Shown piece by piece: positions 1,546 to 27,115 of a stretch of DNA of 64,000 bases (positions within the stretch are counted from its first letter, which is position 1; the number at the start of each line of letters is the position of its first letter). The notes beneath the pieces were generated by a model. It worked only from the letters and a program-made list of their open reading frames with translations. It did no database searches and was not told the DNA's origin. Origin of the DNA: an uncultured Acidobacteriota bacterium (GTDB taxonomy: Bacteria; Acidobacteriota; Vicinamibacteria; Vicinamibacterales; CAVVIG01). The stretch is from the NCBI GenBank assembly GCA_963697745.1, contig CAVOPD010000016.1, forward strand, positions 24,931 through 88,930. The letters run 5' to 3'. The position numbers and the translations under genes are program-made.

Positions 1546-3036
1546 ATGAAACGAATCCTTCCACCGAGCTTCTATAACCCACTGTCGCTCGTGGGCATGG
1601 TCATCGTGGCGACCAACTTCGCGTTGATCGTCTTCATCACGCTGATGATCATGCTGACGGACCACTCAGGGCCGTACGCCGACATCGTCATCTACTTCCT
1701 GCTGCCGCTGGTCGCGTCCGGCGGAATAGTGCTGATGGTCGTGGGCGCCGTGCTGGAGCGCCGGCGCAAGCGGGCCGGGCTGCCGGAACGGCGGCTTCCA
1801 GTCGTGGACTTCAACGACGCGCGTCAGCGCACAACCGTGCTGACCCTGGTCGCGACGTTCGTGGTGCTGACGCTCGCGTATGCGTTCGCGGGCTACAAGA
1901 CCTACGAGTTCTCGGAGTCGACGCAGTTCTGCGGAACCACCTGTCACGGGATCATGAAGCCGGAGTTCACCGCGCACCGGGTGTCGCAGCACGCCGAGGT
2001 GGACTGTGTCGAGTGCCATGTCGGATCGGGCGCGAAGTACTTCGTCGAAGCGAAGTTGGGCGGAACGCGCATGCTGATGGGCACCCTGACCGGGCGGTAT
2101 TCGCGTCCCATTCCGGTGCCGGTTCACAACCTCCGGCCATCTCCGGAAACCTGCGAGACCTGTCACGGCCCGCGGATCCAGGCCACGCAGCGGCTCGAAT
2201 CTCATACCGTGTACCGCACGGACTCGGCGAATACCCCCTGGACGGTCGATCTGATCCTCAGGATGGGCCAGGTGGAGGGCGTGACCGATCCTCCGGCGCG
2301 GATGCACTGGCACTCGAGTACCACGCGCCAAATCCAGTACGCCACAAGCGACGGCAAGCGCGTCGACATCCCATGGCTGCAGGTGGAGCGCCTGGACGGC
2401 ACGGTCCGCACTTATCGCCGCACCGACAGCACAGCGACCGCCGAGGAACTGGCCGCGCTGCCGCGCCGGACAATGGACTGCGTGGATTGCCACAACCGCG
2501 CCGGCCACTACATCCGTCCGCCCGCGCAGGCGGTGAACGAGGCCATGTCACTGGCATTGATCGATCCCGCGCTGCCCGATCTCAAGCGCGTCGCCGTGGA
2601 AGCGCTCGATGCGGACTACGCCACCCGGGACGCCGCGCATGCCGACATCCGCAACCGGATCGAGACGCTGTACCGCGACGATCACCCGACGGTGGCCACC
2701 GCGATGAAGCCGCAAATCGACCGGGCGATCGTGGAACTGCAGAACATCTACGATCGCAACTACGACCCGTTCATGAAGACGAACTGGAAGAGCTATCCCG
2801 ACAATGCCGGGCACATGTACTCGCAGGGCTGCTTCCGCTGCCATGACGGCAAGCACGTGGCCGACGATGGTCACGTGCTGTCGAACGACTGCACGCTCTG
2901 CCACACCCTGGTCAAACACGACGTCGCCGACAATGGCAGAAGCGCTGTTCTCACGCTCATGGACTATCCGCATCCCGAGGATGTCGGAGACGCTTACAAG
3001 GAAGCGTTGTGCTCGGATTGCCATGGCGCCAACTAG
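1546..3036 (+). CDS. Inner-membrane heptahaem c-type cytochrome with NapC/NirT-like region (ImcH-like architecture)
   Basis: ORF 1546..3036. Three N-terminal hydrophobic helices followed by seven CXXCH motifs (CGTTCH, CVECH, CETCH, CVDCH, CFRCH, CTLCH, CSDCH). Length 496 aa. Confidence 0.75.
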   Translation: MKRILPPSFYNPLSLVGMVIVATNFALIVFITLMIMLTDHSGPYADIVIYFLLPLVASGGIVLMVVGAVLERRRKRAGLPERRLPVVDFNDARQRTTVLTLVATFVVLTLAYAFAGYKTYEFSESTQFCGTTCHGIMKPEFTAHRVSQHAEVDCVECHVGSGAKYFVEAKLGGTRMLMGTLTGRYSRPIPVPVHNLRPSPETCETCHGPRIQATQRLESHTVYRTDSANTPWTVDLILRMGQVEGVTDPPARMHWHSSTTRQIQYATSDGKRVDIPWLQVERLDGTVRTYRRTDSTATAEELAALPRRTMDCVDCHNRAGHYIRPPAQAVNEAMSLALIDPALPDLKRVAVEALDADYATRDAAHADIRNRIETLYRDDHPTVATAMKPQIDRAIVELQNIYDRNYDPFMKTNWKSYPDNAGHMYSQGCFRCHDGKHVADDGHVLSNDCTLCHTLVKHDVADNGRSAVLTLMDYPHPEDVGDAYKEALCSDCHGAN

Positions 3037-3136
3037 CAGGCGAACGTGACCACCAGGCCAAAAGCACCAGCCACGAACAGACCGCGGCGCTGAAGATGCC
3101 GCGCCGCGTACATTGCCGCTTGCACGGAGGTCCTCG

Positions 3137-4165
3137 ATGCCAGTAGCCGACTACGCCAAGTACTGCGAGATGCTCGACCGGGCGCGAACGGGCAAGTTCG
3201 CCTATCCCGCCGTCAACGTCACGTCGCTGACCACCGCCAACGCCGTACTGAAAGGGCTGGCGGACAGCCGGAGCGACGGAATCATCCAGATATCAACCGG
3301 CGGCGCCGCGTTCGCCTCGGGCGTGGCCGTAAAGGACATGCCGCTTGGCGCCATCTCGATCGCCGAACATGTCCACCGCGTCGCCGAGCGGTATCCGATC
3401 TATGTGGCGTTGCATACCGACCACTGTCAGGCCGACAAGCTGGACACGTTCGTGCTGCCGCTGGTCGAGGAGACCGAGCGGCGACGGGCCGAGGGAAAGC
3501 CGAATCTGTTCACCGGCCACATGTTCGACGGCAGCGCCCTGCCGTTGAAGGAGAACCTGGATATCGCGGTGAAGCTGCTCGAGCGCTTCGCGAAGAGCGA
3601 GCTGATCCTCGAAATCGAAACCGGCGTGGTCGGCGGCGAGGAGGATGGCATCAAGGCGAGCGCCGCCGCAAAGCTCTACACCACGCCCGAGGACACGCTG
3701 GAGGTCGCACGCCGGCTGAACGCGATCAAGGGCGGCCGTTACCTGCTGGCGGCGACGTTCGGGAACGTCCACGGCGTCTACAAGCCCGGGCACGTGAAGC
3801 TTGCCCCCACCATCCTCAAGGACTGTCAGGACGCCGTCGTCAGCAAGTACGGCGACTCCGCACGCTTCGATTTCGTGTTTCACGGCGGATCGGGTTCTGA
3901 ACTCCGCGATATCCACGAGGCGATCGATTACGGCGTCGTCAAGATGAACGTCGACACCGACATGCAGTACGCGTTCAGCCGCGCGATCGCCGATCATTTC
4001 TTCAGGAATTACGACGGCGTGCTGAAGGTGGATGGCGAGGTGGGCAACAAGAAGACGTACGACCCGCGCTCCTATCTGGCCAGTGCCGAAAAGGCGCAGG
4101 CCGCTCGCGTCGTGCAGTCGGTGAAGGACATGAAGGCAGAAGGAACGACATTGGCGTCGAGGTAG
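3137..4165 (+). CDS. fba: Fructose-bisphosphate aldolase, class II
   Basis: ORF 3113..4165. ATG at 3137 preceded by GGAGG at 3126..3130. N-terminus MPVADYAKYCEMLDRARTGKFAYPAVNVTS...IIQISTGGAAF is typical of class II FBA. Confidence 0.9.
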   Translation: MPVADYAKYCEMLDRARTGKFAYPAVNVTSLTTANAVLKGLADSRSDGIIQISTGGAAFASGVAVKDMPLGAISIAEHVHRVAERYPIYVALHTDHCQADKLDTFVLPLVEETERRRAEGKPNLFTGHMFDGSALPLKENLDIAVKLLERFAKSELILEIETGVVGGEEDGIKASAAAKLYTTPEDTLEVARRLNAIKGGRYLLAATFGNVHGVYKPGHVKLAPTILKDCQDAVVSKYGDSARFDFVFHGGSGSELRDIHEAIDYGVVKMNVDTDMQYAFSRAIADHFFRNYDGVLKVDGEVGNKKTYDPRSYLASAEKAQAARVVQSVKDMKAEGTTLASR

Positions 4166-4191
4166 GCGCGGTATCGTCAGGAGAGAACCGT

Positions 4192-5187
4192 ATGGCTCGA
4201 ATAGCGATTCATGGTTTCGGCCGCATCGGGCGGTCATTGATGAAAGTGGCACTCCGGAACGACCTGTTTGTGCCGGTCTCCGTCTCGGACATCAAGGATG
4301 TGCCGACGCTCGGGGCACTGTTCGAAGTGGATTCCAACTACGGGCGGTGGGCCGAGGAGGTCGCCACAGACGACGGCGGCTTCATCATCGGCGGGCGTCA
4401 GATCCCGTATTTCAACTCGATGAAGGCGCTGCCCGACTGGAAAGCCCTCGACGTCGACCTGGTGATCGATTGTACCGGGCGAGCGAGCACGCGTCCCGGC
4501 GCCCAGGCCCATCTGGATGCCGGAGCCAAACGGGTGCTCGTCAGTGCCCCGAGCAAGACGCAGAACGATTGCGACGCCGTGCTGCTGCCGGGCATCAATC
4601 TCGAGACCTACAATCCGGCGGCACACAAGATCGTCAGCATGGCGAGCTGCACGACCAACGCGCTCGCTCCGGTCGTCAAGGTGGTGATCGAGAACTTCGG
4701 CATCAGGACCGGCCTGTTCTCGACGATCCACGCCTATACGAATACCCAGTCGCTCACCGATCAGCCAATGAAGGACCGGCGCGACTCGTGGGCGGCGACG
4801 GAGAACATCATTCCGTCCTCGTCGGGCGCGGCTCGTGCGCTGGCGTTCATCTGGAAGGGACTGCAGATCTCGGGCAAGGCGTACCGCGTCCCCACGCGCA
4901 CCGGCAGCATCGCGGAGCTGAACCTGCTCACCGAAAAGCCGGTCACGGTCGACGCGATGAACGACGCTTTCCGCAAAGCCGCCGGAAATGCCCCGCTCAA
5001 GGGAGTGATGAGCGTTCTCGAAGGTGAATGGGCCTCGTCGCGCATCGTCGGCGATCCGCATTCGTCGATCGTGGACCTGCCATTGACGGCAGTCCAGGGC
5101 GACCTGCTGTCGGTGGCCGCCTGGTATGACAACGAGATGGGCTACGCCACCCGCCTCGCAGAGACGGCAGCGTTCCTCACCAGGTAG
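4192..5187 (+). CDS. gap: Glyceraldehyde-3-phosphate dehydrogenase, type I
   Basis: ORF 4192..5187. GFGRIGR NAD-binding motif and catalytic SCTTNALAP motif. Confidence 0.9.
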   Translation: MARIAIHGFGRIGRSLMKVALRNDLFVPVSVSDIKDVPTLGALFEVDSNYGRWAEEVATDDGGFIIGGRQIPYFNSMKALPDWKALDVDLVIDCTGRASTRPGAQAHLDAGAKRVLVSAPSKTQNDCDAVLLPGINLETYNPAAHKIVSMASCTTNALAPVVKVVIENFGIRTGLFSTIHAYTNTQSLTDQPMKDRRDSWAATENIIPSSSGAARALAFIWKGLQISGKAYRVPTRTGSIAELNLLTEKPVTVDAMNDAFRKAAGNAPLKGVMSVLEGEWASSRIVGDPHSSIVDLPLTAVQGDLLSVAAWYDNEMGYATRLAETAAFLTR

Positions 5188-5322: not shown

Positions 5323-6939
5323 TCAGCAGAGCACCAGCGACACCGCGAGGCCGCCTTCGGACGTCTCCTTGTACTTGGTATTCATCTCCTTCGCGGTGAG
5401 CGCCATGGCGCTCACCGTCGTGTCGAAGTCGACGCGGCGGTCGATCGGGATCTCGTTGCTGGCGATCATGAAGCCGGTCCAGGCCTTCACTGCGCCAAAC
5501 GCGCAACGCTCGATGCACGGCACCTGCACGAAACCGGCAACCGGATCGCACGTCATGCCGAGGTGATGCTGCAGCGATGACTCCGCTGCGTTCGCCACCA
5601 CCTGGTTATCGAAGTCGTGTGCCTCGGCCAGGAGCGCGGCGCCCATCGCCGAGGCGACGCCGATCTCGGCCTGACAGCCGCCTTCCGCGCCCGACAGCGT
5701 CGCGTTGTGCTTGCACAGGTACCCCACCGCCGCGGCGGCGAGGAACCCGTTGCGGATCTTCTCCTGCGAGAGCTTCCGGCCTCCCTCGCCCAGCGCGTAG
5801 ACGAGCGCCGGCATCACGCCCGCCGACCCACCGGTCGGCGCCGTCACCACCAGATGGCCGCGGGCGTTCTCTTCCGAGCCTGCCAGGGCATAGGCCGACA
5901 CGACGCCGATGCCGCGCTGCGCCTCGTACTTGTCGTCCATCGCGCGCTTATAGACCTCGCCGGCCTTGGTCTTGAGCTTGATCGGTCCGGGCAGGGTCGC
6001 CGGCGGAGCGTTGAGTCCGGACTTGACGATGTTGACCATCGCCAGCGCGATCTTGTCGATGAAGGCGTTGACCTCGGCTTCGCTCTTGCCGGACACCGCC
6101 ACTTCGTTGGCCATGACGAGCTGGGCGACCGACAGCTTGTCGCGGTCGGCGTGCGCCTGCAGTTCCTTCATCGTGGCGTACGGATACTTCGGCTGCCCCT
6201 TCTTCGGCGGCTGATATCCCTTCCACTCGATGAACCCGCCGCCGACGGAGTAGTACTCCTGCTCGAGCAACACCGCGTCGCCGGCCATCAGCTTGCAGGT
6301 CATCGTGTTCGGGTGCGGGAAATCGCCCTTCGGCGAGTCGTAGATGATGTCCTTCAGCGACACGTTGAAGGTGCTGGCGCCCAGCTTCACCGGGAAGCTC
6401 TGATCCGGCTGCGCCGCGAGGCTGTCGAGGAACGCCGGTTCGACCGTCGCCGGTTCCTTGCCGATGACTCCGGCCAGCGCGGCTCGCTCGGTGCCGTGGC
6501 CCTTTGCCGGTGGCGCTGAGGCTGCCGAACAGGTGCACCTTGATCGCGGTCGCTTTCGCCAGCTGGTCGGCCGGCAGCTTCGTGCAGCGCTGGTAGAAGT
6601 CGTAGGTGATGCGCATCGGGCCGATCGTGTGGGAGCTCGATGGTCCCGGGACCCACCTTGTAGAACTCCTCCAGGGTCGTCATGACCGGGCCCTTCGACT
6701 TCTTCACGACGTCGAGCTCGGTGGAGAGGGGCGGCTCCGCGACCGTCGGCGCCGGCGCGGTGGCCGCCTCGGTCCGTTCCTTCTCCGACACCGAGCAGCC
6801 GGTGATGATCGCCGCGGAGGTGATGACGGCGCTGCGCATCAGGAACGTGCGGCGGTCCACACCCGGACGGGATGCCGGTCAGGTTGAGCTCCTCGTCCGG
6901 AAGCAGCGGCGTTGCGCGATTCGATTTGTCAGTCTTCAT
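5323..6939 (-). CDS. sdaA: L-serine ammonia-lyase (Fe-S L-serine dehydratase) with N-terminal Tat/lipoprotein signal; frame-disrupted (about 3 indels)
   Basis: Fragments are ORFs 5323..6939, 5948..6616 and 6387..6860. The spliced protein reads ...FYKVGPGPSSSHTIGPMRITYDFYQ...SATGKGHGTERAALAGVIG...CQAEIGVASAM...LVLC. ATG at 6939 has a perfect SD (AAGGAG-N5-ATG). Signal: DRRTFLMRSAVITSAAIITGC. Confidence 0.8.
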   Translation of the reverse strand: MKTDKSNRATPLLPDEELNLTGIPSGCGPPHVPDAQRRHHLRGDHHRLLGVGEGTDRGGHRAGADGRGAAPLHRARRREEVEGPGHDDPGGVLQGGSRDHRAPTRSARCASPTTSTSAARSCRPTSWRKRPRSRCTCSAASAPPAKGHGTERAALAGVIGKEPATVEPAFLDSLAAQPDQSFPVKLGASTFNVSLKDIIYDSPKGDFPHPNTMTCKLMAGDAVLLEQEYYSVGGGFIEWKGYQPPKKGQPKYPYATMKELQAHADRDKLSVAQLVMANEVAVSGKSEAEVNAFIDKIALAMVNIVKSGLNAPPATLPGPIKLKTKAGEVYKRAMDDKYEAQRGIGVVSAYALAGSEENARGHLVVTAPTGGSAGVMPALVYALGEGGRKLSQEKIRNGFLAAAAVGYLCKHNATLSGAEGGCQAEIGVASAMGAALLAEAHDFDNQVVANAAESSLQHHLGMTCDPVAGFVQVPCIERCAFGAVKAWTGFMIASNEIPIDRRVDFDTTVSAMALTAKEMNTKYKETSEGGLAVSLVLC

Positions 6940-7044
6940 GATTGCTCCTTAAGTGGTTTCCACCATGGCACGGACGTCAGGTCGGCTGCGTCAGGTCGCT
7001 GAATTCTGCGCTTGATGCGTCCATGCGCGTATTCGTCATCGTGG

Positions 7045-7893
7045 TCATCTCACATCGCCTCGACGCCCATGCGATCGGAACCTCGCCACGACTTCGTCAG
7101 TCTGCTCCTGGGACGGCGGCTGCGTGTCGTGCAGCTGGTAGGCCATCCCGAGCTTCTCCCACTTGAAGCGACCGAGCTGGTGGAACGGCAGCACCTCCAG
7201 CCGCTGGACGTTGCCCAGGCTCGCGGCAAACTGCGCGACCCTGGTGATCTCGTCGGGGTGATCGCTCAGGCCCGGCACCAGCACGTAGCGCAGCCACATC
7301 GGCTTGCGCAGCGCGGCCAGTCGGCGCGCGAATGTCAGGACCGGACCGTTATCCCTGCCCGTGATGCGAACGTGCAGATCGGGATCGATCGCCTTGATGC
7401 CGAGCATCACGAGATCGCATTGCTCCAGATCCGTGTCACTGAGCCGATCGCCAAGGTAGCCGTTCGTCTCGAGGTTCGTGTGGATGCCGGACGCCTTGAC
7501 GGCGGTGAACAGTTTGATCACAAAGCGGTCCTGGAGGAGCGGGTCGCCGCCGCTCACCGTCAGACCGCCCTTCATGGTGGCCAGGCCATGCCGGTACTTC
7601 TTGACCTCTTCCACCGCTCGGCCCAGCGGTACCGGGATGCCGTTGTGCAGCTTCCAGGTGTCAGGGTTGTGACAGAAGACGCACTGGAACTGGCATCCGG
7701 TCAGCCACACCACGACGCGCATGCCGGGGCCATCGACCGCCGATCCGGTGGTGTACGAGTGGACGAAGCCAAGTTCGCCGCTCTCCAGCGCCGCGCGGGT
7801 GCCCGACTCTCCCACCCGCTCGCCGAGCGAGACGCGCAGGTCGTAGCGGCTCGCGACCAGCGGCACGTCAGCGTCGGACACGTTCATCGTCAT
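7045..7893 (-). CDS. pflA: Pyruvate formate-lyase activating enzyme (radical SAM)
   Basis: ORF 7045..7947. CX3CX2C cluster motif CQFQCVFCHNPDTW and GGLTVSGGDPLLQ. ATG at 7893 lies 4 nt after the pflB stop. Intact. Confidence 0.9.
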   Translation of the reverse strand: MTMNVSDADVPLVASRYDLRVSLGERVGESGTRAALESGELGFVHSYTTGSAVDGPGMRVVVWLTGCQFQCVFCHNPDTWKLHNGIPVPLGRAVEEVKKYRHGLATMKGGLTVSGGDPLLQDRFVIKLFTAVKASGIHTNLETNGYLGDRLSDTDLEQCDLVMLGIKAIDPDLHVRITGRDNGPVLTFARRLAALRKPMWLRYVLVPGLSDHPDEITRVAQFAASLGNVQRLEVLPFHQLGRFKWEKLGMAYQLHDTQPPSQEQTDEVVARFRSHGRRGDVR

Positions 7894-7897
7894 GGCG

Positions 7898-10166
<2,269 letters not shown>

Positions 10167-10178
10167 GACTGTGCCGTC

Positions 10179-10807
10179 CTATCCTTCGCTCTGAATTCCT
10201 TCGATGTATCCCTGCGCGCCGGTCTGGACGTTGGCGGCGTTCGCTTCGTCGGTGTCGATGTGCATGGCGAGCGCGAAGCTCGGATCCACGCGCACGAGCA
10301 CGTCGCCGAAGACCAGTTCGCGATCGCCGGCGATGCGCACGCGCACGACCGACTTGTCGCGCACGCCGTAGCGGAGCGCATCCTCGGGCGTCATGTGGAT
10401 GTGGCGCAACGCGCAGATGACGCCGCGGTCGAGCGTCACGCTGCCGGCCGGTGCCTTCGAGCGTGCAGCCGGGCGTGTCCGCGATGTCGCCGCTCTCGCG
10501 GATCGGCGGATGCACGCCGAGCTTGAACTGCTCGGTCATCGCGATCTCGATCTGCGTGTATTTGCGCGTCGGGCCCGAGCACGCGCACGCGCTCGATGCG
10601 GCCCTTCGGCCCGACGATGGCGAGCTGCTCCTTGCAGGCGTACTGACCGGGCTGCGACAGGTCGGCGTGCTTGGTGAGCTGATGACCCGGGCCGAACAGC
10701 GCCTCGACGTGCTCCTGCGTGAGGTGAATGTGATGCGCCGAGACCTCGACGAGAAACGGCTGCTGCTTCTGCGCCTCGAGCACCTGCGTGATGTAGGAGC
10801 GGCTCAA
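10179..10807 (-). CDS. pduL: PduL-type phosphate acyltransferase (Pta analogue); frame-disrupted (about 2 indels)
   Basis: Fragments are ORFs 10436..10807, 10135..10539 and 10179..10439. Two PduL repeats: VEVSAHHIHLTQEHVEALFG...LSQPGQYA...VRVLGP and VICALRHIHMTPEDA...AMHIDTDEANAA. TTG start at 10807. Confidence 0.8.
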
Positions 10808-12511
10808 CGTCGCGCAGCGCCTCGCGCGCCATCATGCGCTCCTCGTCGGTCGGCACGACGAGCACCGCCACCTTCGAGTCGTCGGTGGAGATGCGGCACA
10901 CCTCGTCGAAGCCGCGCGCGTCGCGGTTGCGCTGCTCGTCGAGCGCGATGCCCATGCAGTCCAGCCCCTGCAGCGCCAGCGCGCGCACTTCCGCGCTGCC
11001 CTGGCCGATGCCGCCGGTGAAGATCACCGCGTCCAGCCCGCCCATCGACGGCGACGTAGGCGCCGATGTATTTGCGCACGCGATAGCAGTACGCCTTGAG
11101 CGCGAGCAACGCGCGGGCTTCGCCCTCGTCGGCGGCCTTGAGGATTTCGCGCATGTCGCTCGAGATGCCGGACAGGCCGAGCAGGCCGCTCTTCTTGTTC
11201 AGCAGTTCCTCGCTCTGCGTGGCGGTGAGCCCTTCGCTCGCGCTCGAGGAAACGCGAGCACGCCCGGCATCGACGTCGCCGCAGCGCGTGCCCATGATCA
11301 GCCCTTCGGCCGGCGTGAAGCCCATCGTGGTGTCCACCGAGCGCCCGTGATCCACGGCGCACAGCGACGAGCCGTTGCCGAGATGGCAGCTCACCAGCCG
11401 CAGCTCGTTCGGCCGGCGCTTCAGAAACTGCGCGGCGCGCAGGCTGACGTACTGGTGCGACGTGCCGTGAAAGCCGTAGCGGCGCACGCCCTTCTTCTCG
11501 TAGAGCTCGTAGGGCAGGCCGTAGAGATACGCGTAGGCCGGCAGCGTGTGATGAAACGCCGTGTCGAACACCGCGACGTGCGGCACGGCCGGAAACAGCC
11601 GGCGCATCTCGCGGATGCCGGCGACGTTCACCGGATTGTGCAGCGGCGCGAGCGGATTGAGCGCCTCGATCTGCGCCAGCACCTCGTCGGTGATGAGCGT
11701 GCCTTCCGTGAACTTCTCGCCGCCATGCACGACGCGATGGGCGACGACGCTGACCTCGCCGGCGCCGCCGATGACGCCCGTTTCCTTCGCCGTGAGTGTC
11801 GCCGACCATCGCCTTGAAGGCCTCGGCAAAGCCGCCCTTCGGCAGCTCGCGTTTCACCTCGCCCTTCGGCCCGCGATGGACGAGGCGCGTGCCGTCGATG
11901 CCGATGCGCTCGACCAGACCGCGCGCCTGGCGCGACTCGTCGGCCGTGTCGTAGAAGCTGTATTTGAGCGACGACGAGCCGCAGTTGATGACGAGGATCT
12001 TCTCGCGGCCGCTCGCCCTTGAGCTTGAGGCCGTACGGATCGTCGCTCTGGCGGAAGCGCCGCGGCCGCCTTCGCCGGATCGGTCGAGACCTGCTTGCAT
12101 CCGCTCGGCGATGGTTCGCGAGATGTGCTGCACCGCGCGCGGTTCGGTCACGATGACGGACTGGAACAGCGGACACCGGAATGCAGCAGCACCTGACATC
12201 GCGATTCGGCCATGATGTCCGCGAGGACCGGGTCGCCGCTCATCAGGACGACTTCGCCGAACGTGTCTCCAGGCTTGAAGCGGCCGATGAACTGAGGCTC
12301 GCCGCCATCACCGGGAACGGAGGCGACCAGTTCGCCGTCGAGCAGAACCCCCAGAGAGGTGGCGTCCTCTCCGATATTCGACGACCACCTCTTTCGGCTC
12401 GTACGACACGACTCGCGACTGCTCCACGAGCCGCGCGAGAAGGTCGTCGCCAAAGTACTGGCAGAGGCCGACGCGCTGTTTCAGGAATGCGACGACTTGA
12501 TCGTTCTTCAT
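10804..12511 (-). CDS. ackA: Cyclic-nucleotide-binding domain fused to acetate kinase; frame-disrupted (at least 7 indels); 3' end uncertain
   Basis: Fragments are ORFs 12308..12526, 12148..12453, 11024..12199, 10804..11829 and 10536..11045. The cNMP beta-barrel ([18 protein letters not shown]) and its C-helix continue without a stop into [32 protein letters not shown] and [14 protein letters not shown] at 12511 has GGAG 5 nt upstream. Confidence 0.8.
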
Positions 12512-12526
12512 GATGCTCCGCCCCAA

Positions 12527-14253
12527 TCAGACTCCGGCCGCTGGCACGGCCGCCGGCCGTGCCGGCGCTGCATACCACTGGTCCTTCGGCACGATCTTCG
12601 GGTCCTTCGGATCGATCACGTAGTTGGGCGACATGATCTGCACGCCGTAGGCGTTGAACTGGTCCTGGATGTTCGCGTAGAGCGCATTGAGCACCACCAG
12701 GCGGGCGTCCTGCTGCTCGAGGCACACGAAGAGCGTGTACTTGACGTAGAAGTCGTCCAGCGAGGTCTGGTAGACGACGGGTGCCGGCTCGGCACACAGG
12801 CCCGGGCGTCTTCTCGGCCGCGGCCAGCAGGAGCCCATGCACCTGCCGCCACGGCGTGTCGTAGCCGATGGTCAGCGAGGTCGTCGTATAGACCCGCTCG
12901 TTCGCCTGGCGGGCGCGAGTAGTTCGTCGTGGTCTGGCCGACGACCACCGCGTTCGGGATGACCACGTCCTCGTTCTGCAGCGTCCTGATTCGGGTCGAG
13001 AGCACGCCGAGGTGCGTGACGGTGCCTTCCGAGTCGCCGATGCGGACGAACTCGTGCAGGCGGATCGCGCGCGAGTAGGTGATCATGAACCCGCTCATCA
13101 CCTGGTTGACGAGGCCGCTCGACCCGAACGAGACGAGCAGGCCGATGAACACGCTCAGGCCCCTGAACGCGTCGGTGCCGCTGCCTGGCATGTAGGGAAA
13201 GGCCACCGTGAGCGCCAGCAGCCACACCAGCGTCGTCGCGAGCCTCCGCGTCGGCAGTGCGGTTTCGGGATAGATCCAGCGCGTCGGTGATGCGGCCTTC
13301 TTCGATCGCGCGAAACCAGACCGTGATCACCCGCACGATCACGCGCGCGAGCAGGACGATCAGAATGACGGTGAAGATGCCCGGGATGGCGCCGATGATG
13401 CTGAGGCCGACATTCTCGGCCGCCTGCAGCAGCAGGCCGCGCATCGATTCACCCCACGGACGCGTATAGGGGAACCGGCGCAGGATGAAGGTCGTGGTGA
13501 CGTAGACGATCACCAGACCAAGGGTCGCCATCACCGAGCCCAGCAGACGCAGCTCGAGATCGATGAGGCGTGACTGGCGGACCGTCTCGACGCCGAGCCC
13601 GGACTTGGCGAGCGTCCGCTCGGCGACCGGCACGAGCCGCTTGATCGAGGAGCCGGTGCAGCGCGGGTCAGGCCCCACAGCGCGAGGATGGCGACGACAA
13701 GCGCCGTTACGGCAAGCGCCAGGCCGCGCAGGAGCTGACGTGGCGACCGCGCCTCCTGTGCCTCGACGAGCGCCGCCTGAAGACGCTCGACGCTCTGGGT
13801 GACCACCTCATCGAGCGTCTCCCCGGACAACTCGTCGACATCCGACGGCGTGAGCACGAACGCCGCCCGGCGAGCCGACTGTGATGACGGTTCCCAGTTC
13901 GAAGCGCTGCGTCTCGACCGGGCCGAACGTCCCCTCGCCGACGATATCGTCGAGAAGCCGCACGGCGCCAGTCACCCGCTCGGCGGGGCTGCGTCCCACC
14001 ACCGTGGCTCGAAAGACGACGATCGGGCGGTTGACGAAGGTCAGCGTGGCGGGAGAGTTCGATCGCGTATCTGCGCCGGTCGCAAGGAAGGGTGGCGCGC
14101 TCGGCGCCAGGGGCGGCCTGCGGCGCCGCCGTCTGAGGTGTTGCTGCCGGGGGAGCCTGTGTCGTGACCCGCGTGCCAGGCACACAGCAGGAGGAGCACG
14201 GCGGTCGAGAGGACCACCGATGCCCGCCGGTGCCCGCGCACGTTGGGAGTCAT
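12527..14253 (-). CDS. Mechanosensitive ion channel (MscS family); frame-disrupted (at least 5 indels)
   Basis: Fragments are ORFs 14041..14253, 13808..14185, 13531..13857, 12872..13678, 12616..13227 and 12527..12838. MscS core: GLLVSFGSSGLVNQVMSGFMITYSRAIRLHEFVRIGDSEGTVTHLGVLSTRIRTLQNEDVVIPNA. Confidence 0.75.
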
Positions 14254-14272: not shown

Positions 14273-15067
14273 TCAGAAGCGCTCGGCGACGAACTTGCGC
14301 CGGCTCAGGGTCGCCTCGTCGTCATAGGTGTGCTTCTTCGATCGGGCGGGAAGCTTCACCTTCGGCTGTTTGACTTTCTTGTACGGCAACTGCTTCAGCA
14401 CGTGCGCGATCGTGTTGAGCCGGGCGCGCTTCTTGTCGTCGGACCGGACGATGAACCAGGGGGCGAGGTCGGTGTCGGTCGCCTTGAACATCGCGTCGCG
14501 CGCCAGGGAGTACTCGAACCACTTCTGCCGCGACGGCAGATCCATCGCGCTCAGCTTCCACTGCCGCAGCGGATCCTCCATGCGGGCCTTGAAGCGGCGC
14601 TCCTGTTCCTTGTTGCCCACCTCGAGCCAGAGCTTGATCAGCACGATGCCGCTCTCGACAATCTGCTTTTCGAACAGCGGCACCACTTCCAGGAAGCGCT
14701 CGTACTGCTTCGGAGTGCAGAAGCCCATGACGTACTCGACGCCGGCACGGTTGTACCAGCTCCGATCGAAGATGACGATCTCGCCCGCTGCCGGAAAGTG
14801 CTGGATGTAGCGCTGCGCGTACATCTGGCTCTTCTCGCGGTCCGAGGGGGCCGGCAGTGCCACGACGCGGAAGACGCGCGGGCTGACCCGTTCGGTGAGC
14901 GCCCGGATCGTCCCGCCCTTGCCGGCCGCGTCACGTCCCTCGAAGACGATGATCGCGCGCAGTCCCTGTTCCTTGACCCAGGACTGGAGTCCGCAGAGTT
15001 CAGCCTGCAGGCGGGACAGTTCCTTGTCGTAGTCCTTGCCCTTCATCTTGCCGTTCGACTTGGCCAT
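14273..15067 (-). CDS. ppk2: Polyphosphate kinase 2 (single-domain PPK2)
   Basis: ORF 14273..15067, intact. Motifs: IIVFEGRDAAGKGGTI, MYAQRYIQHFPAAGEIVIFDRSWYNRAGVE. Confidence 0.9.
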   Translation of the reverse strand: MAKSNGKMKGKDYDKELSRLQAELCGLQSWVKEQGLRAIIVFEGRDAAGKGGTIRALTERVSPRVFRVVALPAPSDREKSQMYAQRYIQHFPAAGEIVIFDRSWYNRAGVEYVMGFCTPKQYERFLEVVPLFEKQIVESGIVLIKLWLEVGNKEQERRFKARMEDPLRQWKLSAMDLPSRQKWFEYSLARDAMFKATDTDLAPWFIVRSDDKKRARLNTIAHVLKQLPYKKVKQPKVKLPARSKKHTYDDEATLSRRKFVAERF

Positions 15068-16579: not shown

Positions 16580-19500
16580 TCAGTGACTCCCCCCGACGCC
16601 GGCCATCTGCGGCGACGGCGCCACAGGCGGCGGTGCCGGTGGTTTCTTCGATCCGCCGGTCACCTTCTCGACGGCGACGTACAGCATCGGGATCAGCAGG
16701 ACGCCCAGAATCGTCGCGATCAGCATCCCGGAGAACACCGTCATGCCAATCACTTTCCGCGCCTCGGCGCCCGCTCCGGTCGCCGTCAGGAGCGGCACGA
16801 CGCCGAGGATGAACGCGAACGCGGTCATCAGAATGGGACGGAAACGCAACTTGGCGGCGTTCAGCGCCGACTCGACCAGCGGCTTGCCGGCGTCGCGCTC
16901 CATCTTGGCGAACTCGACGATCAGGATCGCGTTCTTCGCGGCGAGGCCGATCAGCATGATCAGGCCAATCTGCGCGAACACGTTGTTCACGTAGCTCGGT
17001 GAGTAGTAGCCGGCGATCCAGAGTCCCAGGTAGGCACCGAATGCCGCGAACGGCGTCCCGAGCAGGACGCTGAACGGAAGTCCCCAGCTCTCGTACTGCG
17101 CGGCGAGAATCAGGAACACCAGGAAAATCGCCAGCGCGAACACCACCGCCACACCGGGAGCCCGACGCTCCTGATACGACATGTCGGCCCAGTCGTAGCT
17201 CATGTCGGTGGGCAGGATGCTCTTTGCCGTTTCCTCCAGCGCATCGAGCGCCTGGGTCGACGAGAAGCCGGCCGCAGGGACGCCGGTGATTTCAGCCGAA
17301 CGGAACAGATTGAACCGGTTCGTGAACTCCGGACCCGCGCTGCCTTTCGTGTTCAGCAGCGTGTCCACCGGGACCATGCCGCCCGTGGCGTTCCGCACGT
17401 AGAACAGCCCCAGCTGCTTCGGGTCCTGGCGGAATTCGGGCTCGGCCTGGACGTACACCTTGTAGACGCGCCCGAACCGGTTGAAGTCGTTCACGTACGA
17501 ACTGCCCAGCAACGCTCCCAGCGTGGTGTTCACGTCGCTCAGCGCCACGCCGGACTTCAGCACCTTGCTGCGGTCGATGTCGGCATAGATCTGAGGAACG
17601 GAAGCGCGATACAGACTCGAGATGCGTCCGATTTCCGGCCGCTTCCTCGCAGCATCCAGGAAGCGCTGCGTCTGCGCCGCAAGATACTCAGGCGAGCCGC
17701 CGCTGCGATCCTGCAGCTGCATCGTGAAACCCGCACCGGTTCCCAGTCCGGGAATCGAGGGCGGGCCGAAGGCGACGACCGAGCCTTCGCGGATCTCCTG
17801 CGCGAAGGCCCGATTGAGCGCGGCGATGACGCCGTTGGCGTGCTCCTCCTCGGTGACCCGGTGCTCCCACGGCTTGAGCTGCACGAAGAAGAACCCCATG
17901 TTCGAGGAGTAGGCGCCGGTCAGCAGGCTGAAGCCGGTGATGGTGTTGTAGCCCTCGACTGCGTCGTTCGCCTTGATGACCGCTTCCGCCTTTTTCATCA
18001 CCGCGTCGGTGCGTTCGAGCGAGGCGGCATCCGGCAGCAGCGCGTTCACCAGCAGAAAGCCCTGATCCTCTTCGGGCACAAACCCGCCGGGAATCTGCCG
18101 GACCAGCGAGACCGTCACGAAGATCAGCACGCCGATGAACGCCAGGCTTCGGAACATCTTGCGAATCAGGATCGCGGAGAAGCTGACGTATTTATCCGTC
18201 GTGTAGCCGAAGACCTTGTTGAAGCCGTTGTAGAACGGCGTCAGCAGCGAGCGCTTCCCGGTCGGCGCCTTGAGCAGCATCGCCGCCAGCGCGGGGCTCA
18301 GCGTCAGCGCGTTGATCACCGACAGCAGCACCGACAGCGCGATGGTAATCGCGAACTGCTGATAGAGGCGCCCGGTGATACCTCCCATGAAGCCCACCGG
18401 CACGAACACCGCGCTCAGGATCAGGCCGATGGCGATCACCGGGCCGGACACTTCCTCCATCGCCTTGATCGTCGCTTCCCGAGGCGCCATCCCGTGCTCG
18501 AGATGATGCATCACCGCTTCGACCACCACGATCGCATCGTCCACGACGATGCCGATGGCGAGCACCAGGCCGAGAAGCGAGAGCACGTTGATCGAGAAGC
18601 CGAGCATCGGGAAGAAGATGAACGCGCCGATCAGGGACACGGGCACGGTCATCAGCGGAATCAGCGTGGCCCGCCAGTTCTGCAGGAACACGAACACCAC
18701 GATGATCACCAGCGCCACCGCTTCGAACAGCGTGTGCTCGATTTCGACAATGCCCTCCGAGACCGGCAGCGTGGTGTCGAGCGAGACGAGGTATTCCATG
18801 TCGCGCGGGAACCGCTTCGACAGGTCGGCCATCGTCGACTTGATGCGATCGGCAACGTCGAGCGCGTTCGTGCCCGGGATCTGGTAGACGGCAATCACGG
18901 CGGACGGCGTGCTGTTGTGCCGTCCCACTGCGTTGTAGAGCATCGTGCCGAGTTCGAGCCGGGCGACGTCCTTGAGGCGGACCTCGGAACCGTCAGGAAG
19001 GGTGCGGAGGATGATGTTGCCGAACTCCTCCTCGTTGAGGAGGCGGCCTTGCGTGCGGACCGTGTAGGTGTACTCGGTTCCGGGTGCGGCAGGCGGCCCG
19101 CCGATCTGGCCTGCCGGGCTCATCTGGTTCTGCTGGCTGATGGCGTTGGCGATGTCAGGAACGGTCAGACCGAGGCGCCCGATCTTGTCGGGCCGCAGCC
19201 AGACGCGCATCGCGTAATCGCTGCCGCCGAAGAGATTGATCTGGCCGACGCCCTGGATGCGGGCGATCGCGTCGTTGACGTTGATGGTCGTGTAGTTGGA
19301 CAGGAAGCTGCTGTCGTAGGTGCCGTTCGGCGACTTGATCGAGATCACCAGCAGCGGAAACGCCAGCGCCTTCTTCACGGACACGCCGTAGTTCTTGACC
19401 GACTGCGGCATCTGCGGCTGGGCCTGTGACACGCGGTTCTGCGTGAGCACGTTGTCCATGTCGAGGTTGGAGCCGACTTCGAACGACACCTTCAACGTCA

Positions 19501-19762
19501 GCGTGCCGTCGTTGGCGTTGGTCGACTTCATGTAGATCATCTGCTCGACGCCGTTGATCTGCTGTTCGAGCGGCGTCGCCACCGACCCCTCGACGTCGGT
19601 CGCGCTGGCGCCGATGAAGGTCGTGGTGACCTGCACCATCGGCGGGACGATCTCCGGGTACTGGGCGATCGGCAGGCCGCGCATGGCAACCAGGCCGAGC
19701 AGGACCATGATGATCGAGAGGACGATCGCAACGATGGGGCGGTCGACAAAGAAACGAGACAT
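16580..19762 (-). CDS. RND efflux permease (HAE1/AcrB-like)
   Basis: ORF 16580..19762, 1060 aa, intact. Starts MSRFFVDRPIVAIVLSI...; conserved VVDDAIVVVE motif. Confidence 0.95.
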   Translation of the reverse strand: MSRFFVDRPIVAIVLSIIMVLLGLVAMRGLPIAQYPEIVPPMVQVTTTFIGASATDVEGSVATPLEQQINGVEQMIYMKSTNANDGTLTLKVSFEVGSNLDMDNVLTQNRVSQAQPQMPQSVKNYGVSVKKALAFPLLVISIKSPNGTYDSSFLSNYTTINVNDAIARIQGVGQINLFGGSDYAMRVWLRPDKIGRLGLTVPDIANAISQQNQMSPAGQIGGPPAAPGTEYTYTVRTQGRLLNEEEFGNIILRTLPDGSEVRLKDVARLELGTMLYNAVGRHNSTPSAVIAVYQIPGTNALDVADRIKSTMADLSKRFPRDMEYLVSLDTTLPVSEGIVEIEHTLFEAVALVIIVVFVFLQNWRATLIPLMTVPVSLIGAFIFFPMLGFSINVLSLLGLVLAIGIVVDDAIVVVEAVMHHLEHGMAPREATIKAMEEVSGPVIAIGLILSAVFVPVGFMGGITGRLYQQFAITIALSVLLSVINALTLSPALAAMLLKAPTGKRSLLTPFYNGFNKVFGYTTDKYVSFSAILIRKMFRSLAFIGVLIFVTVSLVRQIPGGFVPEEDQGFLLVNALLPDAASLERTDAVMKKAEAVIKANDAVEGYNTITGFSLLTGAYSSNMGFFFVQLKPWEHRVTEEEHANGVIAALNRAFAQEIREGSVVAFGPPSIPGLGTGAGFTMQLQDRSGGSPEYLAAQTQRFLDAARKRPEIGRISSLYRASVPQIYADIDRSKVLKSGVALSDVNTTLGALLGSSYVNDFNRFGRVYKVYVQAEPEFRQDPKQLGLFYVRNATGGMVPVDTLLNTKGSAGPEFTNRFNLFRSAEITGVPAAGFSSTQALDALEETAKSILPTDMSYDWADMSYQERRAPGVAVVFALAIFLVFLILAAQYESWGLPFSVLLGTPFAAFGAYLGLWIAGYYSPSYVNNVFAQIGLIMLIGLAAKNAILIVEFAKMERDAGKPLVESALNAAKLRFRPILMTAFAFILGVVPLLTATGAGAEARKVIGMTVFSGMLIATILGVLLIPMLYVAVEKVTGGSKKPPAPPPVAPSPQMAGVGGSH

Positions 19763-21435: not shown

Positions 21436-22890
21436 CTACGCCGAATAGCGTTTGAATGGGTGGAGGTTCTGCTGATCCACGGGCCTCCGGATCCCCAGTT
21501 TCTTCATCCGGAACCGCAAGGTGTTCGGGTGCAGCCCGAGCACGTCGGCAGCGTTGCCGGGACCATTAATCCGCCAGCGGCACCGACGCAGGGCCTGCTC
21601 GATGTGCCGCTGTTCAATCACTTCGAGCGTGCAGTTGCTGCTGGCGCCGTGAGAGAACACCACGCCGGGGCCGTCATCGAGGCGAAGCGTGTCGCCGTTC
21701 GAGTGAATCATGGCGCGCTCGATCACGTTCTGCAGTTCGCGCACATTCCCCGGCCACGAATGCTGCTCGAGTGCCGCGAACACGGCGTCGGGAATCCTGG
21801 TGAACTTGCGCCCCAGGGCTCGCTGCCGCCGGTTCACGAAGAACCAGACCAGGCGCGGGATGTCCTCGAGCCGGTCGCGCAGCGCCGGCAGCGCAATCGG
21901 GAAGACATTGAGGCGATAGTAGAGATCTGCCCGGAATCGACCCTCGGCGACCGCCGCTTCCAGGTTGTGATGCGTGGCCGCGACAACACGCACATCGACC
22001 CGGCGTGACTGCGACGAGCCGACGCGCTCGAATTCGCCTTCCTGCAGCACGCGCAGCAGTTTGGCCTGCACGTCGGCGGGCAGATCGCCGATCTCGTCCA
22101 GGAAGAGCGTGCCCATGTGCGCCAGCTCGAAGCGGCCCTGTCGCATCGACACCGCTCCGGTGAACGCCCCGCGCTCGTGGCCGAAGAGTTCGCTTTCGAT
22201 GAGCGTCGGTGGAAGCGCGGCGCAGTTGACTGGCACGAACGGCCGGTTCCGGCGGGCGCTTCGTTCGTGAATCGCACGCGCGAACAGTTCCTTGCCGGTT
22301 CCGGTCTCCCCGATCAGCACGACCGACGCGTCGGTGGCGGCCACCTCCTGCACGCGCGCCAGCGCCGTGCGCAACAGAGGGCTGTCGCCGATGACGTCCT
22401 GGAACTCCGCGCCATCGACAAGGCTCGTGAAGCAGACGACGGGACCCGAGTTCAGGCGGGCGATCTCGGCCTGAGCACGCTCCAACTCGCGGGCCTGCCG
22501 CCCGCGCTGAAGTGCGACGGCCATGAGGTTCGCGAGCGTCTGCAGCCGGTGTTCGACGGGCGGTTCCAGGGGCGACCGGTCGCTGCGCTGCTCGATGACG
22601 AGCGCGGCGAAGGGTCGGCCATCGAGCACCACCGGCACCTTCAGCGCCGATTCGCCGGAGTTCGCCGGGACAGCGCGGCTCCAGACGTGGGGGTCGTCGC
22701 CGCTCGGACTACCCTCCGAAGCCGATTCGAACGCCGCCCGGTCGCTTCCGAGGATGTCGCCAACCGCCGCCAGCGCCGCGTCGATCGGCCCGGGCCCCAG
22801 GCCGTCCCAGGCGGCAAGGTTCGATGCGAGGTGAGCGCACACCCGGTCGAGTCCACGGAGTACTCCGTCGAGAACCTCGAATTCGCTCAT
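21436..22890 (-). CDS. Sigma-54-dependent transcriptional activator (GAF - AAA+ - Fis-type HTH)
   Basis: ORF 21436..23094; likely start is the ATG at 22890 (MSEFEVLDGV). Walker A GETGTGKE, GAFTGA motif, C-terminal HTH AADVLGLHPNTLRFRMKKLGI. Confidence 0.9.
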   Translation of the reverse strand: MSEFEVLDGVLRGLDRVCAHLASNLAAWDGLGPGPIDAALAAVGDILGSDRAAFESASEGSPSGDDPHVWSRAVPANSGESALKVPVVLDGRPFAALVIEQRSDRSPLEPPVEHRLQTLANLMAVALQRGRQARELERAQAEIARLNSGPVVCFTSLVDGAEFQDVIGDSPLLRTALARVQEVAATDASVVLIGETGTGKELFARAIHERSARRNRPFVPVNCAALPPTLIESELFGHERGAFTGAVSMRQGRFELAHMGTLFLDEIGDLPADVQAKLLRVLQEGEFERVGSSQSRRVDVRVVAATHHNLEAAVAEGRFRADLYYRLNVFPIALPALRDRLEDIPRLVWFFVNRRQRALGRKFTRIPDAVFAALEQHSWPGNVRELQNVIERAMIHSNGDTLRLDDGPGVVFSHGASSNCTLEVIEQRHIEQALRRCRWRINGPGNAADVLGLHPNTLRFRMKKLGIRRPVDQQNLHPFKRYSA

Positions 22891-23118
22891 ATGGGGTTGA
22901 CGATTGCACCCGTGCAACGGATGTACCAGGCGTTGAGCCCTGAAAAATCGCGCGATTGCGGTGTATCGCCGACGCGAACCCCGCGCCAGCGTAGTCGTTC
23001 CGTCCTGCTGAACGGAGGCCCTCCGTAGGTCCGGAGGCCGGCGATCGGGGCGATGAGAACAGTTGGCATGCTGGTGCCGGTCAAACGACGACACGATAGC
23101 TGGTCACGCCGGATGCGA

Positions 23119-25739: not shown

Positions 25740-25747
25740 CGTGTGGG

Positions 25748-27115
25748 ATGACACGCGCGATGAACCACTGGATGCAACCGCTGCTGATTCTGCTCTCGCT
25801 GCTGACGCCGACATGCGTGCTGGCCCAGGCCCACGACGCGCCGCCGAGCCAGCCGGACGAAAGAACGACCGGGTTGCCCTCCCGAATCGACTGGACGTTC
25901 AACCTCGACGCGACATGGGGCACGTTCGGGTTCGCCAACTCACTGTTCGAAAACCCGAAGGAGGGCGTGGCGGAGGATCTGAGCGATCAGTGGTTCGAAG
26001 GATCGCTCAAGCCGGCACTCTCGGGCGTGTTCACCAGCGGATCATCGGGAGAGATCTACGGAAGGATGAGTGGCGTCGGCGAGCGGACGTACGGTTCGGC
26101 ACCGGCGCTGGTCGGCGAGGATGTCTCTTCCTTTCAGGTCGAGGATCTCACCATCGGCTGGCGATCGGCACAGATGGCCGTGCCTGGCGAGCACGCATTC
26201 GATGTCTCAGTCGGCCGCACGCCGTACACGATCGGCCATGGTCTGCTGCTGTGGGACGGTGCTGCCGAGGGCGGCAGCCGCGGCGGGTACTGGACGAACG
26301 CGCGCAAGGCATTCCAGTTCGCCGCGATCGGGCGCGCGCACGTGGGCCGTCACAAGGCCGACGTGTTCTATCTGGACAAGGACGATCTCCCGGAGCAGGA
26401 CACCGGGACCAGGCTGTGGGGCACGAACTACGAGCTGACCATCGACGACCACACGACGCTCGGCGCGGCCTACCTTGGATTGTTCGCCGATCCGGAACGC
26501 GCCCCGCAGCGGGACGGTCTGCACGTGCTCAACCTTCGCGCCTATTCGGCGCCGCTCGCGCGGGCCCGCGATCTCTCCTTCGAGTTCGAATACGTCGTCG
26601 AGCGACGTGGCGATCTGCGTCACTCCGACGGATGGACCCTTCAGTCAGCGTATGCGTTCAGCGGCGTGGGCTGGACCCCGACGCTCACCTACCGGTATGC
26701 CTCATTTCAGGGCGACGATCCGGCGACTCCGCGCAATGAGGCGTTCGACCCGTTGTTGCCCGGCTTCTCCGACTGGGGCAGATGGTGGCAGGGAGAAATC
26801 GTCGGTGAATATGCCGTCTCCAACTCCAACCTGAACTCGCAACTGGTCCGCGTGCATGTTGCACCGGGCGATGCGGTTGGCGGAGGATTGATGTTCTACA
26901 AGTTCACGGTCGGCCAGCCGGCGACGTTCGCTCCAGGTGTAACCGACAGCAATCTGGCGCTCGAAGTTGACGGCTACGTGGACTGGAAGATCAACCAGCA
27001 CTTCACTGCCAGCCTCGTCGCGGCAGGCGCCAACCCGCAGACCGCCGCACAGCAGGCATTCGACCGGAGGAAGAACTTCGCGTACGGCATGCTCTTTCTT
27101 GCCTACAGTTACTAG
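25748..27115 (+). CDS. Outer-membrane beta-barrel (alginate-export/porin-like)
   Basis: 3' part of ORF 24830..27115. ATG at 25748 gives the signal peptide MTRAMNHWMQPLLILLSLLTPTCVLAQA. C-terminus is ...MLFLAYSY. Family call is tentative. Confidence 0.6.
   Translation: MTRAMNHWMQPLLILLSLLTPTCVLAQAHDAPPSQPDERTTGLPSRIDWTFNLDATWGTFGFANSLFENPKEGVAEDLSDQWFEGSLKPALSGVFTSGSSGEIYGRMSGVGERTYGSAPALVGEDVSSFQVEDLTIGWRSAQMAVPGEHAFDVSVGRTPYTIGHGLLLWDGAAEGGSRGGYWTNARKAFQFAAIGRAHVGRHKADVFYLDKDDLPEQDTGTRLWGTNYELTIDDHTTLGAAYLGLFADPERAPQRDGLHVLNLRAYSAPLARARDLSFEFEYVVERRGDLRHSDGWTLQSAYAFSGVGWTPTLTYRYASFQGDDPATPRNEAFDPLLPGFSDWGRWWQGEIVGEYAVSNSNLNSQLVRVHVAPGDAVGGGLMFYKFTVGQPATFAPGVTDSNLALEVDGYVDWKINQHFTASLVAAGANPQTAAQQAFDRRKNFAYGMLFLAYSY

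Follow-up and report, generated by a model that had tools for sequence, protein, structure and literature searches.

A conserved fusion of a cyclic-nucleotide-binding-fold domain, acetate kinase and PduL predicted from a frameshift-split locus of an uncultured Acidobacteriota bacterium

Does the minus strand between positions 12511 and 10179 of a 64,000-nucleotide stretch of an uncultured Acidobacteriota bacterium (contig CAVOPD010000016.1; the whole stretch is called the window) encode several proteins or one? The coding there matches cNMP_binding (PF00027), Acetate_kinase (PF00871) and PTAC/PduL (PF06130), in this order, and is spread across three frames in the raw sequence. An earlier sequence-only reading had proposed that a cyclic nucleoside monophosphate (cNMP)-binding domain, an acetate kinase (Ack) and a PduL-type phosphotransacylase form a single polypeptide. 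Our analysis agrees: the domains form one gene in independent assemblies, and the corrected window holds the same open reading frame (ORF) of 772 codons. The predicted polypeptide of 772 amino acids (aa) consists of a sensor with a cyclic-nucleotide-binding (CNB) fold and a degenerate ligand cassette, a conserved linker, and a complete Ack joined directly to PduL.

Three domains in one predicted polypeptide

The ORF list for 8.5-14.5 kb, together with a three-frame translation, places five ORFs on the minus strand at 12308..12526, 12148..12453, 11024..12199, 10804..11829 and 10436..10807. The first two encode the cNMP-binding-like N-terminus, and 11024..12199 holds both the C-helix and the Ack N-terminal motif, as the sequence-only reading had described. 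The body of Ack lies in 10804..11829 and its C-terminus in 10536..11045, while PduL coding is divided among 10436..10807, 10135..10539 and 10179..10439, all on the minus strand.

The profile searches that the same reading had recommended match the stitched translation above cutoff for all three predicted domains, with Pfam scores far beyond chance: cNMP_binding at 6.2e-15 (55.4 bits against a cutoff of 27.5), Acetate_kinase at 1.5e-146 (488.5 bits, profile positions 1-392 of 392) and PTAC at 1.3e-77 (260 bits, positions 2-175 of 176). Among NCBIfam models, TIGR00016 (ackA) scores 488 bits (cutoff 293) and NF011652 (phosphate propanoyltransferase) 266.5 bits (cutoff 209). No NCBIfam equivalog model reaches its cutoff, and that collection holds no dedicated model for the CNB-Ack-PduL form.

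A large and uncharacterised protein family

We then looked for the same arrangement in other organisms. We searched 5.8 billion proteins with the stitched CNB and Ack query. Each of the 120 top matches is a single protein that carries PF00027, PF00871 and PF06130, is 76-81% identical to the query and measures 658-794 aa, with 118 of the 120 falling at 767-794 aa. Relatives are encoded in 439 species-representative genomes, found by scanning one genome per species among the GTDB representatives; the locus-level results given here rest on the best 80 of these 439 loci. These 80 cover residues ~1-772 at 66-90% identity (protein identity of the best segment), with one exception that ends at a contig end. 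Of the 80 loci, 79 keep a single frame free of stops from a point before the Ack N-terminal motif all the way through PduL; in 75 of these 79, at least 167 aa of sensor and linker sequence also precede the Ack domain in that frame. Public gene calls likewise include single products of 769 aa and 772 aa with all three Pfam domains. The domain order is thus the same in the relatives, where the sequence-only reading had allowed that the genes might always be separate.

The hosts are mainly Verrucomicrobiota (Chthoniobacterales, Candidatus (Ca.) Udaeobacter, Limisphaerales) and Planctomycetota, the latter comprising several Ca. Brocadia (including the complete genome AP021856), Pirellulaceae, Gemmataceae and Phycisphaerae; some host genomes are labelled Bacteroidota or Binatia. 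The family is therefore abundant in environmentally important groups that are hard to culture, among them Udaeobacter and other soil Chthoniobacterales and the Brocadia anammox bacteria. Clustering at 50% with homologue P0015 as query gave ~13 three-domain clusters at 36-54% identity, alongside two-domain Ack-PduL proteins (590-613 aa) and CNB-Ack proteins (570-580 aa). Because the three-domain form spans this many divergent clusters and two-domain forms accompany it, the architecture is old and modular.

The fusion gene of the window is an ordinary member of this large, catalogued and uncharacterised family, from which it differs in kind only by its 14 inserted bases, and on its own it adds nothing new to the family. 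The "unusual regulatory design" of the sequence-only reading is overstated: the form is unstudied, yet at least 439 species-representative genomes encode relatives.

Across window positions 10186-12276 the fusion gene is 92% identical in nucleotides to that of a Verrucomicrobiae metagenome-assembled genome (MAG; locus L039), whose flanks are not syntenic. Window positions 5323-12455, which comprise the fusion gene, pflB, pflA and sdaA, are syntenic with MAGs that carry the labels Binatia or Margulisiibacteriota (L020, L058 and L012), yet only ~80% identical to them. Horizontal transfer, mis-binning or uneven sampling are possible sources of this mismatch.

Fourteen single-base insertions in the window copy

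We placed the frameshifts with our own frameshift-aware protein-to-DNA alignment against P0015 and with a nucleotide alignment to five relatives (L039, L005, L002, L003 and L020); tblastn, run with homologues against the window, merged frames in this GC-rich sequence and failed to place them. Both alignment methods independently agree on 14 one-base insertions, at approximately 12373, 12184, 12172, 12092, 12057, 12005, 11798, 11265, 11252, 11239, 11049, 10811, 10573 and 10451. They span 10451..12373 on the minus strand, and each inserted base is gapped in all five relatives. The five-relative alignment contains no window-specific deletion in the fusion gene. Guided by P0015, one continuous protein runs from the ATG to the TAG (Table 1) with 14 nucleotides (nt) skipped and zero residues lost. 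The corrected ORF of 2,319 nt (772 codons and the stop) has no internal stop and is under purifying selection, with dN/dS of 0.13-0.21 and amino-acid identity of 80-89% to relatives.

These positions revise several details of the sequence-only reading, in which one undetected indel decided the outcome. It had taken the linker to share the frame of Ack, a continuity that is an artefact of three insertions (12092, 12057 and 12005) summing to +3; the "second frame" that it also saw open through this region is the true linker, as found in all homologues. A possible end of ackA at TGA 10804..10806 falls away, as Ack has already left that frame. The proposed TTG start of pduL at 10807 is an internal Leu codon (..REALRTLSRSY..), and the Ack-PduL join is interrupted solely by the insertion at ~10811.

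Frame damage extends beyond the fusion gene. The adjoining pflB carries window-specific insertions at ~9382, 9372, 8992 and 8735/8734, and all pflB events in the five-relative alignment are insertions; the MscS-like gene 5' of the fusion is split by frameshifts into at least three overlapping ORFs. Switches in the phase of third-codon-position GC content (GC3) are in excess at 8-14 kb, and chains of overlapping same-strand ORFs recur at 28-31 kb (glycogen phosphorylase), 40-43 kb and 60-63 kb. We consider the 14 frameshifts most likely to be consensus errors of sequencing or assembly and not biological, because they are insertions only, the gene is under purifying selection, and patchy damage affects many genes, including both adjoining ones. 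It is plausible that the errors arose where conserved genes drew reads from related strains.

Two rival accounts of the broken frame have to be weighed. Two or three separate genes (for a CNB protein, ackA and pduL) could appear fused through indels; the raw window indeed lacks a continuous frame, and stand-alone Ack, Ack-PduL and CNB-Ack architectures all occur in nature. However, the reading frame is unbroken in every close relative (66-92% identical), and the junction sequences there are conserved and contain neither stop nor start signals. The corrected window matches these junctions residue for residue, and we regard the account of separate genes as scarcely credible. Alternatively, the gene may be a true pseudogene in this organism, its frameshifts being real mutations in a decaying pathway. 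The number of breaks within 2.3 kb, the broken neighbours on both sides and the intact state of other window genes across 2-3 kb, which makes the damage locally concentrated, all speak for decay. Against it, every event is a +1 insertion with no deletion, the corrected frame has no nonsense codon and retains low dN/dS and high identity to relatives, and the catalytic motifs are all intact. The ORF chains in unrelated genes at 28-31, 40-43 and 60-63 kb fit consensus errors of the indel type, and similar splits occur in relatives from long-read MAGs, for example in the pyruvate formate-lyase (PFL) and SdaA genes of L081. Decay is thus very unlikely, and consensus error is the reading that we retain; under it, a stretch that gene callers would report as fragments or pseudogenes is one conserved 772-aa enzyme.

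Programmed frameshifting was also considered and rejected: the 14 sites share no common motif and are absent in all relatives.

The insertions at 11265, 11252 and 11239 are spaced exactly 13 nt apart and jointly restore the frame, which is odd for random sequencing error; the trio at 12092, 12057 and 12005 likewise sums to +3. Genes split in the window are pflB (7898-10166), the MscS-like gene (12527-13678), glycogen phosphorylase (28316-31113), an amylase/GH63-like gene (40600-42850) and a gene at 60630-63400. The long AcrB gene (16580-19762) is intact, so that indel damage is patchy over the window.

A CNB-fold domain without the cyclic-phosphate arginine

The sequence-only reading had described a canonical cNMP-binding beta-barrel. 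The fold itself is confirmed: the N-terminal domain matches the CNB domains of PKA, PKG and CAP in the Protein Data Bank (PDB) by sequence, and Foldseek aligns its AlphaFold2 model (pLDDT, the predicted local distance difference test, of ~70-95 over the sensor) to PKA CNB-B domains with a TM score of 0.76-0.80 and a root-mean-square deviation of ~2 Å. The cassette is non-canonical, and its Arg is missing family-wide. In canonical cassettes (GELAL....PRAATV.A) the Gly-Glu pair contacts the ribose 2'-OH, and the Arg (R209 in PKA RI-alpha, R82 in CAP) neutralises and hydrogen-bonds the cyclic phosphate. Where these have P-R-[AS]-A-[TS], the window protein has P-V-L-A-D, with Val95 (12228..12226) at the Arg position and Asp98 at the Thr/Ser position.

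We tabulated these columns across the family. Among 208 motif-matched sequences the Arg position holds V (83), L (57), T (20), M (19), A (13), S (6), E (5), N (2), I (2) or Q (1), and never Arg, while the cassette Glu is invariant (208/208) and is preceded by Gly, Asn or Ala. The residue at the canonical Thr/Ser position is Asp or Glu in the family. In a set of 75 sequences, made up of the window protein and 74 locus-derived proteins, L, V, T and M predominate at the Arg position. Arg is absent from it as well in 18 divergent representatives of 50% clusters; one of these has an Arg one position away. The linker has a higher mean pairwise identity (0.65) than the CNB domain (0.55), and conservation above that of the sensor suggests a functional relay or docking element.

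The sequence-only reading had further proposed a second-messenger-gated module, in which cAMP or cGMP would control the conversion of acetyl-CoA to acetate and ATP. The PF00027 match above the gathering score, the cAMP- and cGMP-binding domains of PKA, PKG and CAP as best PDB sequence and fold matches, and the conserved Gly-Glu of the cassette would all suit such gating. Because the cassette Arg has been lost across the family, being replaced by V, L, T, M, A or similar in 208 of 208 sequences, gating by cAMP or cGMP is nevertheless unsupported; the residue next but two is moreover acidic and not Thr/Ser. Trypanosomatid PKA R subunits that lack this Arg have also lost the cAMP response, and the residue had to be restored for a response to cyclic nucleotides (PMC10959531). 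We therefore hold cAMP or cGMP gating to be unlikely and favour, by inference, a ligand other than a cNMP or a structural role for the sensor.

The N-terminal domain would most likely serve in allostery or oligomerisation, in response to some ligand that is neither cAMP nor cGMP. A more specific version, in which the CNB-fold domain works as an allosteric sensor of such a non-cyclic-nucleotide ligand and switches a channelled PduL-Ack pair through the conserved linker, is tentative, and we would sooner doubt than assert it. Candidate ligands include nucleosides and nucleotides, CoA and acetyl-CoA, acetyl-phosphate, and carboxylates such as pyruvate. If this were true, it would amount to a post-translational gate on substrate-level phosphorylation common to soil Verrucomicrobiota, Planctomycetota (including anammox bacteria) and others, and to a new ligand class for bacterial CNB domains. 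With the cAMP/cGMP-binding Arg missing throughout the family, the identity of the ligand is a directly testable question.

A nucleoside site of the kinetoplastid type was rejected as a candidate. In trypanosomatid PKA R subunits, loss of the Arg together with an Ala-to-Glu change switches the site from cAMP to nucleosides (PMC10959531), and this diagnostic change is absent here.

The acetate kinase and PduL domains

Over its full length, the Ack part aligns with the acetate kinases of Thermotoga maritima and Methanosarcina thermophila (2iir and 1tuu; E values of 1e-128 and 1e-125), and its catalytic and substrate-binding motifs, including PTDEE, are identical to those of 1tuu and 2iir. We take the residues concerned to be Asn7, Arg91, Asp148, His180, Asn211, Arg241 and Glu384 in M. 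thermophila numbering. The PduL part aligns with Rhodopseudomonas palustris PduL (5cuo, E value of 3e-49), such that its SAHHIHL, ALRHIHM and MHIDTDEANA correspond to sNRHIHL, aQRHIHM and MHIDvEEANA; both HxH motifs are kept, and these His-rich motifs presumably mark the metal sites.

The PduL domain bears no encapsulation peptide, its N-terminus being joined directly to the Ack C-terminus, and no bacterial microcompartment (BMC) shell protein was found among the neighbouring genes scanned (a subset of the window ORFs). The PduL of the fusion thus appears not to be of the BMC-associated, metabolosome type.

An AlphaFold model of P0015 built from 71 diverse sequences reached a pLDDT of 88.6 and a pTM (predicted TM score) of 0.73; its pLDDT drops to 63-76 over the linker and to 64-69 where Ack meets PduL. 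Modelling with 30 near-identical sequences was poor (pLDDT 51.5), and we claim no geometry for the docking of the domains.

PduL is predicted to convert acetyl-CoA and phosphate to acetyl-phosphate and CoA, and the fused Ack to convert acetyl-phosphate and ADP to acetate and ATP. PduL would stand in place of phosphotransacetylase (Pta), and fusion would keep the labile acetyl-phosphate local; the coupled reaction should in principle be reversible. The fusion would thereby supply a Pta function that annotation based on PF01515 would call missing.

Seven divergent three-domain proteins and one shortened sequence (P0124, P0126, P0128, P0130, P0131, P0137 and P0148, and P0145, respectively) have a degenerate form of the Ack N-terminal N-x-G-S-S-S-x-K motif, for example VVNARRTSFKF or AITCRQDDVRY, and these clusters keep the PduL motifs. 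To judge from this motif, such clades may have a kinase half that is inactive or has taken on another role.

Gene neighbourhood and likely physiological role

The fusion gene lies in a minus-strand series transcribed in the order MscS-like gene, fusion, pflB, pflA and sdaA (Table 1), and it stands at the head of the co-directional cluster that ends with sdaA. The intergenic gaps at the two ends of the fusion are 12-15 nt, with pflB beginning 12 nt past the fusion stop. Elsewhere in the window are genes for class II fructose-bisphosphate aldolase, glyceraldehyde-3-phosphate dehydrogenase, PPK2, pyruvate kinase, glycogen phosphorylase, a debranching enzyme and amylase-family hydrolases.

Table 1. 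Positions of the fusion gene, its parts and the adjoining genes in the window
Feature	Position	Strand	Evidence and remarks
Whole fusion gene: CNB-like sensor, acetate kinase and PduL (predicted)	10179..12511	-	Frameshift-aware alignment, five-relative nucleotide alignment, dN/dS, Pfam, NCBIfam; 772 codons and stop after removal of 14 inserted bases
Fusion start codon ATG	12511..12509	-	Homologues align from residues 1-9
GGAG Shine-Dalgarno-like motif	12516..12519	-	4 nt 5' of the ATG; read from the sequence
Fusion stop codon TAG	10181..10179	-	
CNB-fold (cNMP_binding-like) domain including C-helix, ~residues 1-140	12089..12511	-	PF00027, PDB sequence matches, AlphaFold2, Foldseek
Non-canonical phosphate-binding cassette	12208..12258	-	Residue-level alignments to PKA R subunits; family column counts
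Conserved linker	12005..12088	-	Crosses three frames through the insertions at 12092, 12057 and 12005
Acetate kinase domain, ~residues 168-564	10815..12004	-	PF00871 full length, TIGR00016, alignment to 2iir and 1tuu
PduL-type phosphotransacylase domain, ~residues 565-772	10182..10810	-	PF06130, NF011652, alignment to 5cuo
MscS-family channel gene, directly 5' of the fusion	12527..13678	-	PF00924 3e-16; TGA stop 12529..12527
pflB (pyruvate formate-lyase)	7898..10166	-	Pfam PFL-like and Gly_radical; co-directional and downstream in many loci
pflA (PFL-activating radical-SAM enzyme), intact	7045..7947	-	Pfam Radical_SAM and Fer4_12; synteny
sdaA (L-serine dehydratase, alpha and beta chains), intact, last of the co-directional cluster	5323..6939	-	Pfam SDH_alpha and SDH_beta

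This context recurs in other genomes. In ~28-34 loci the fusion is followed, in the same orientation, by sdaA, pflB and pflA (sdaA in 34 of 80), and among the 52 loci of at least 15 kb, 42 have one or more neighbours from the set of sdaA, PFL, pyruvate kinase, glycogen phosphorylase and related genes. The placement of fusion, pflB, pflA and sdaA within a glycogen and glycolysis island suggests that ATP is likely formed from pyruvate or serine, together with stored glycogen, and the likely role of the cluster would be anoxic fermentation to acetate and formate with a gain of ATP. As its members stand next to genes for glycogen breakdown, PFL and serine dehydratase, it is probable that the family sustains survival under anoxia through fermentation to acetate.

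The glycogen-to-fermentation island occupies window positions 3113-5187, 14273-15067, 24066-34435 and 40900-44970 and also includes a SulP/STAS transporter, an isoamylase-type debranching enzyme and GH63/MGH1-like hydrolases. In other genomes, too, several of its genes are found no more than 10 kb from the fusion.

Other loci differ in their neighbours. Around the fusion in L081 (7907-9981; 12313-21058) are genes for RidA, an Asp-Al_Ex transporter, NrfH/NrfA-like cytochromes and phosphoketolase, an enzyme that is a source of acetyl-phosphate. In L082 (7839-9989) the fusion is flanked by a SIR2 deacetylase and by a GNAT acetyltransferase that ends 12 nt upstream.

Taken as a whole, we judge it highly probable that the locus encodes a fused protein with ATP formation by PduL and Ack, a sensor of something other than a cNMP, and artefactual frameshifts. 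Several points weigh against this explanation. The insertions are patchy, with several stretches of 2-3 kb frame-intact, which is odd for a uniform error process, and the gene may be a very recent pseudogene. The function of the sensor is purely inferred, and the domain could be ligand-free. The enzyme activities of the CNB-Ack-PduL family are predictions, and the Ack N-terminal motif is degenerate in some divergent clades. Finally, the PFL/sdaA context is absent from most Brocadia loci and from many in Planctomycetota, so that the physiological direction may differ between lineages.

Comparison with known systems

The closest counterparts are proteins catalogued as 'acetate/propionate family kinase' or 'acetate kinase' (767-780 aa; for example P0015, P0086 and locus L051 of Ca. 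Brocadia pituitae AP021856), which share the domains, their order, the linker and the junctions with the window protein. Many of these loci also have PFL/sdaA or glycogen genes as neighbours, as in the window. In the anammox genome papers the gene goes by the plain name "acetate kinase".

A CNB domain at the N-terminus of a catalytic domain tied to acetyl-CoA and acetate metabolism is also found in the mycobacterial protein lysine acetyltransferase Rv0998 / MSMEG_5458 (PDB 4ava), which is among the Foldseek fold matches of the sensor. Rv0998 has a canonical cassette, binds cAMP and carries a GNAT catalytic domain, whereas the window protein lacks the cassette Arg and its enzymes are Ack and PduL.

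PduL domains have been found in multidomain proteins annotated as acetate kinases, where they were proposed to replace Pta and to aid channelling (Erbilgin et al. 2016, PLoS Biol, PMC4784909). The window protein resembles these in having a PduL without encapsulation peptide fused to acetate kinase; unlike them, it adds a sensor of ~140 aa and a conserved linker of ~28 aa, an N-terminal CNB-like domain not being mentioned there. A literature search found no paper describing the three-domain CNB-Ack-PduL form. The predicted overall chemistry, from acetyl-CoA through acetyl-phosphate to acetate and ATP, is that of the classical Pta-AckA pathway (PMC4784909), in which Pta (PF01515) and AckA are separate proteins; here the unrelated PduL fold is covalently fused to the kinase and a sensor is attached.

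As for the cassette, the CNB domains of trypanosomatid PKA R subunits (6flo and 6hyi, both weak sequence matches to the window's domain) also keep Gly-Glu, have lost the Arg and do not respond to cAMP (PMC10959531). Unlike the kinetoplastid domains, which have gained a Glu (GELE..) and bind the ribose 3' and 5' hydroxyls of nucleosides, the fusion family keeps Ala (GE[MLA]A..). Its cassette therefore matches neither the cNMP nor the nucleoside type.

Other features of the window

An Rfam scan of the whole window gave zero matches and hence no riboswitch, and a promoter and terminator scan of 5-14.5 kb returned nothing above shuffled sequences. A sigma-54-dependent activator with a weak GAF-domain match is encoded at 21436-23094, ~9 kb from the fermentation cluster and on the same strand as the RND efflux genes. 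A NapC/NirT-type multihaem cytochrome (1546-3036) and an MtrB/PioB-type outer-membrane porin (51282-53435) hint at a capacity for extracellular electron transfer in the same organism.

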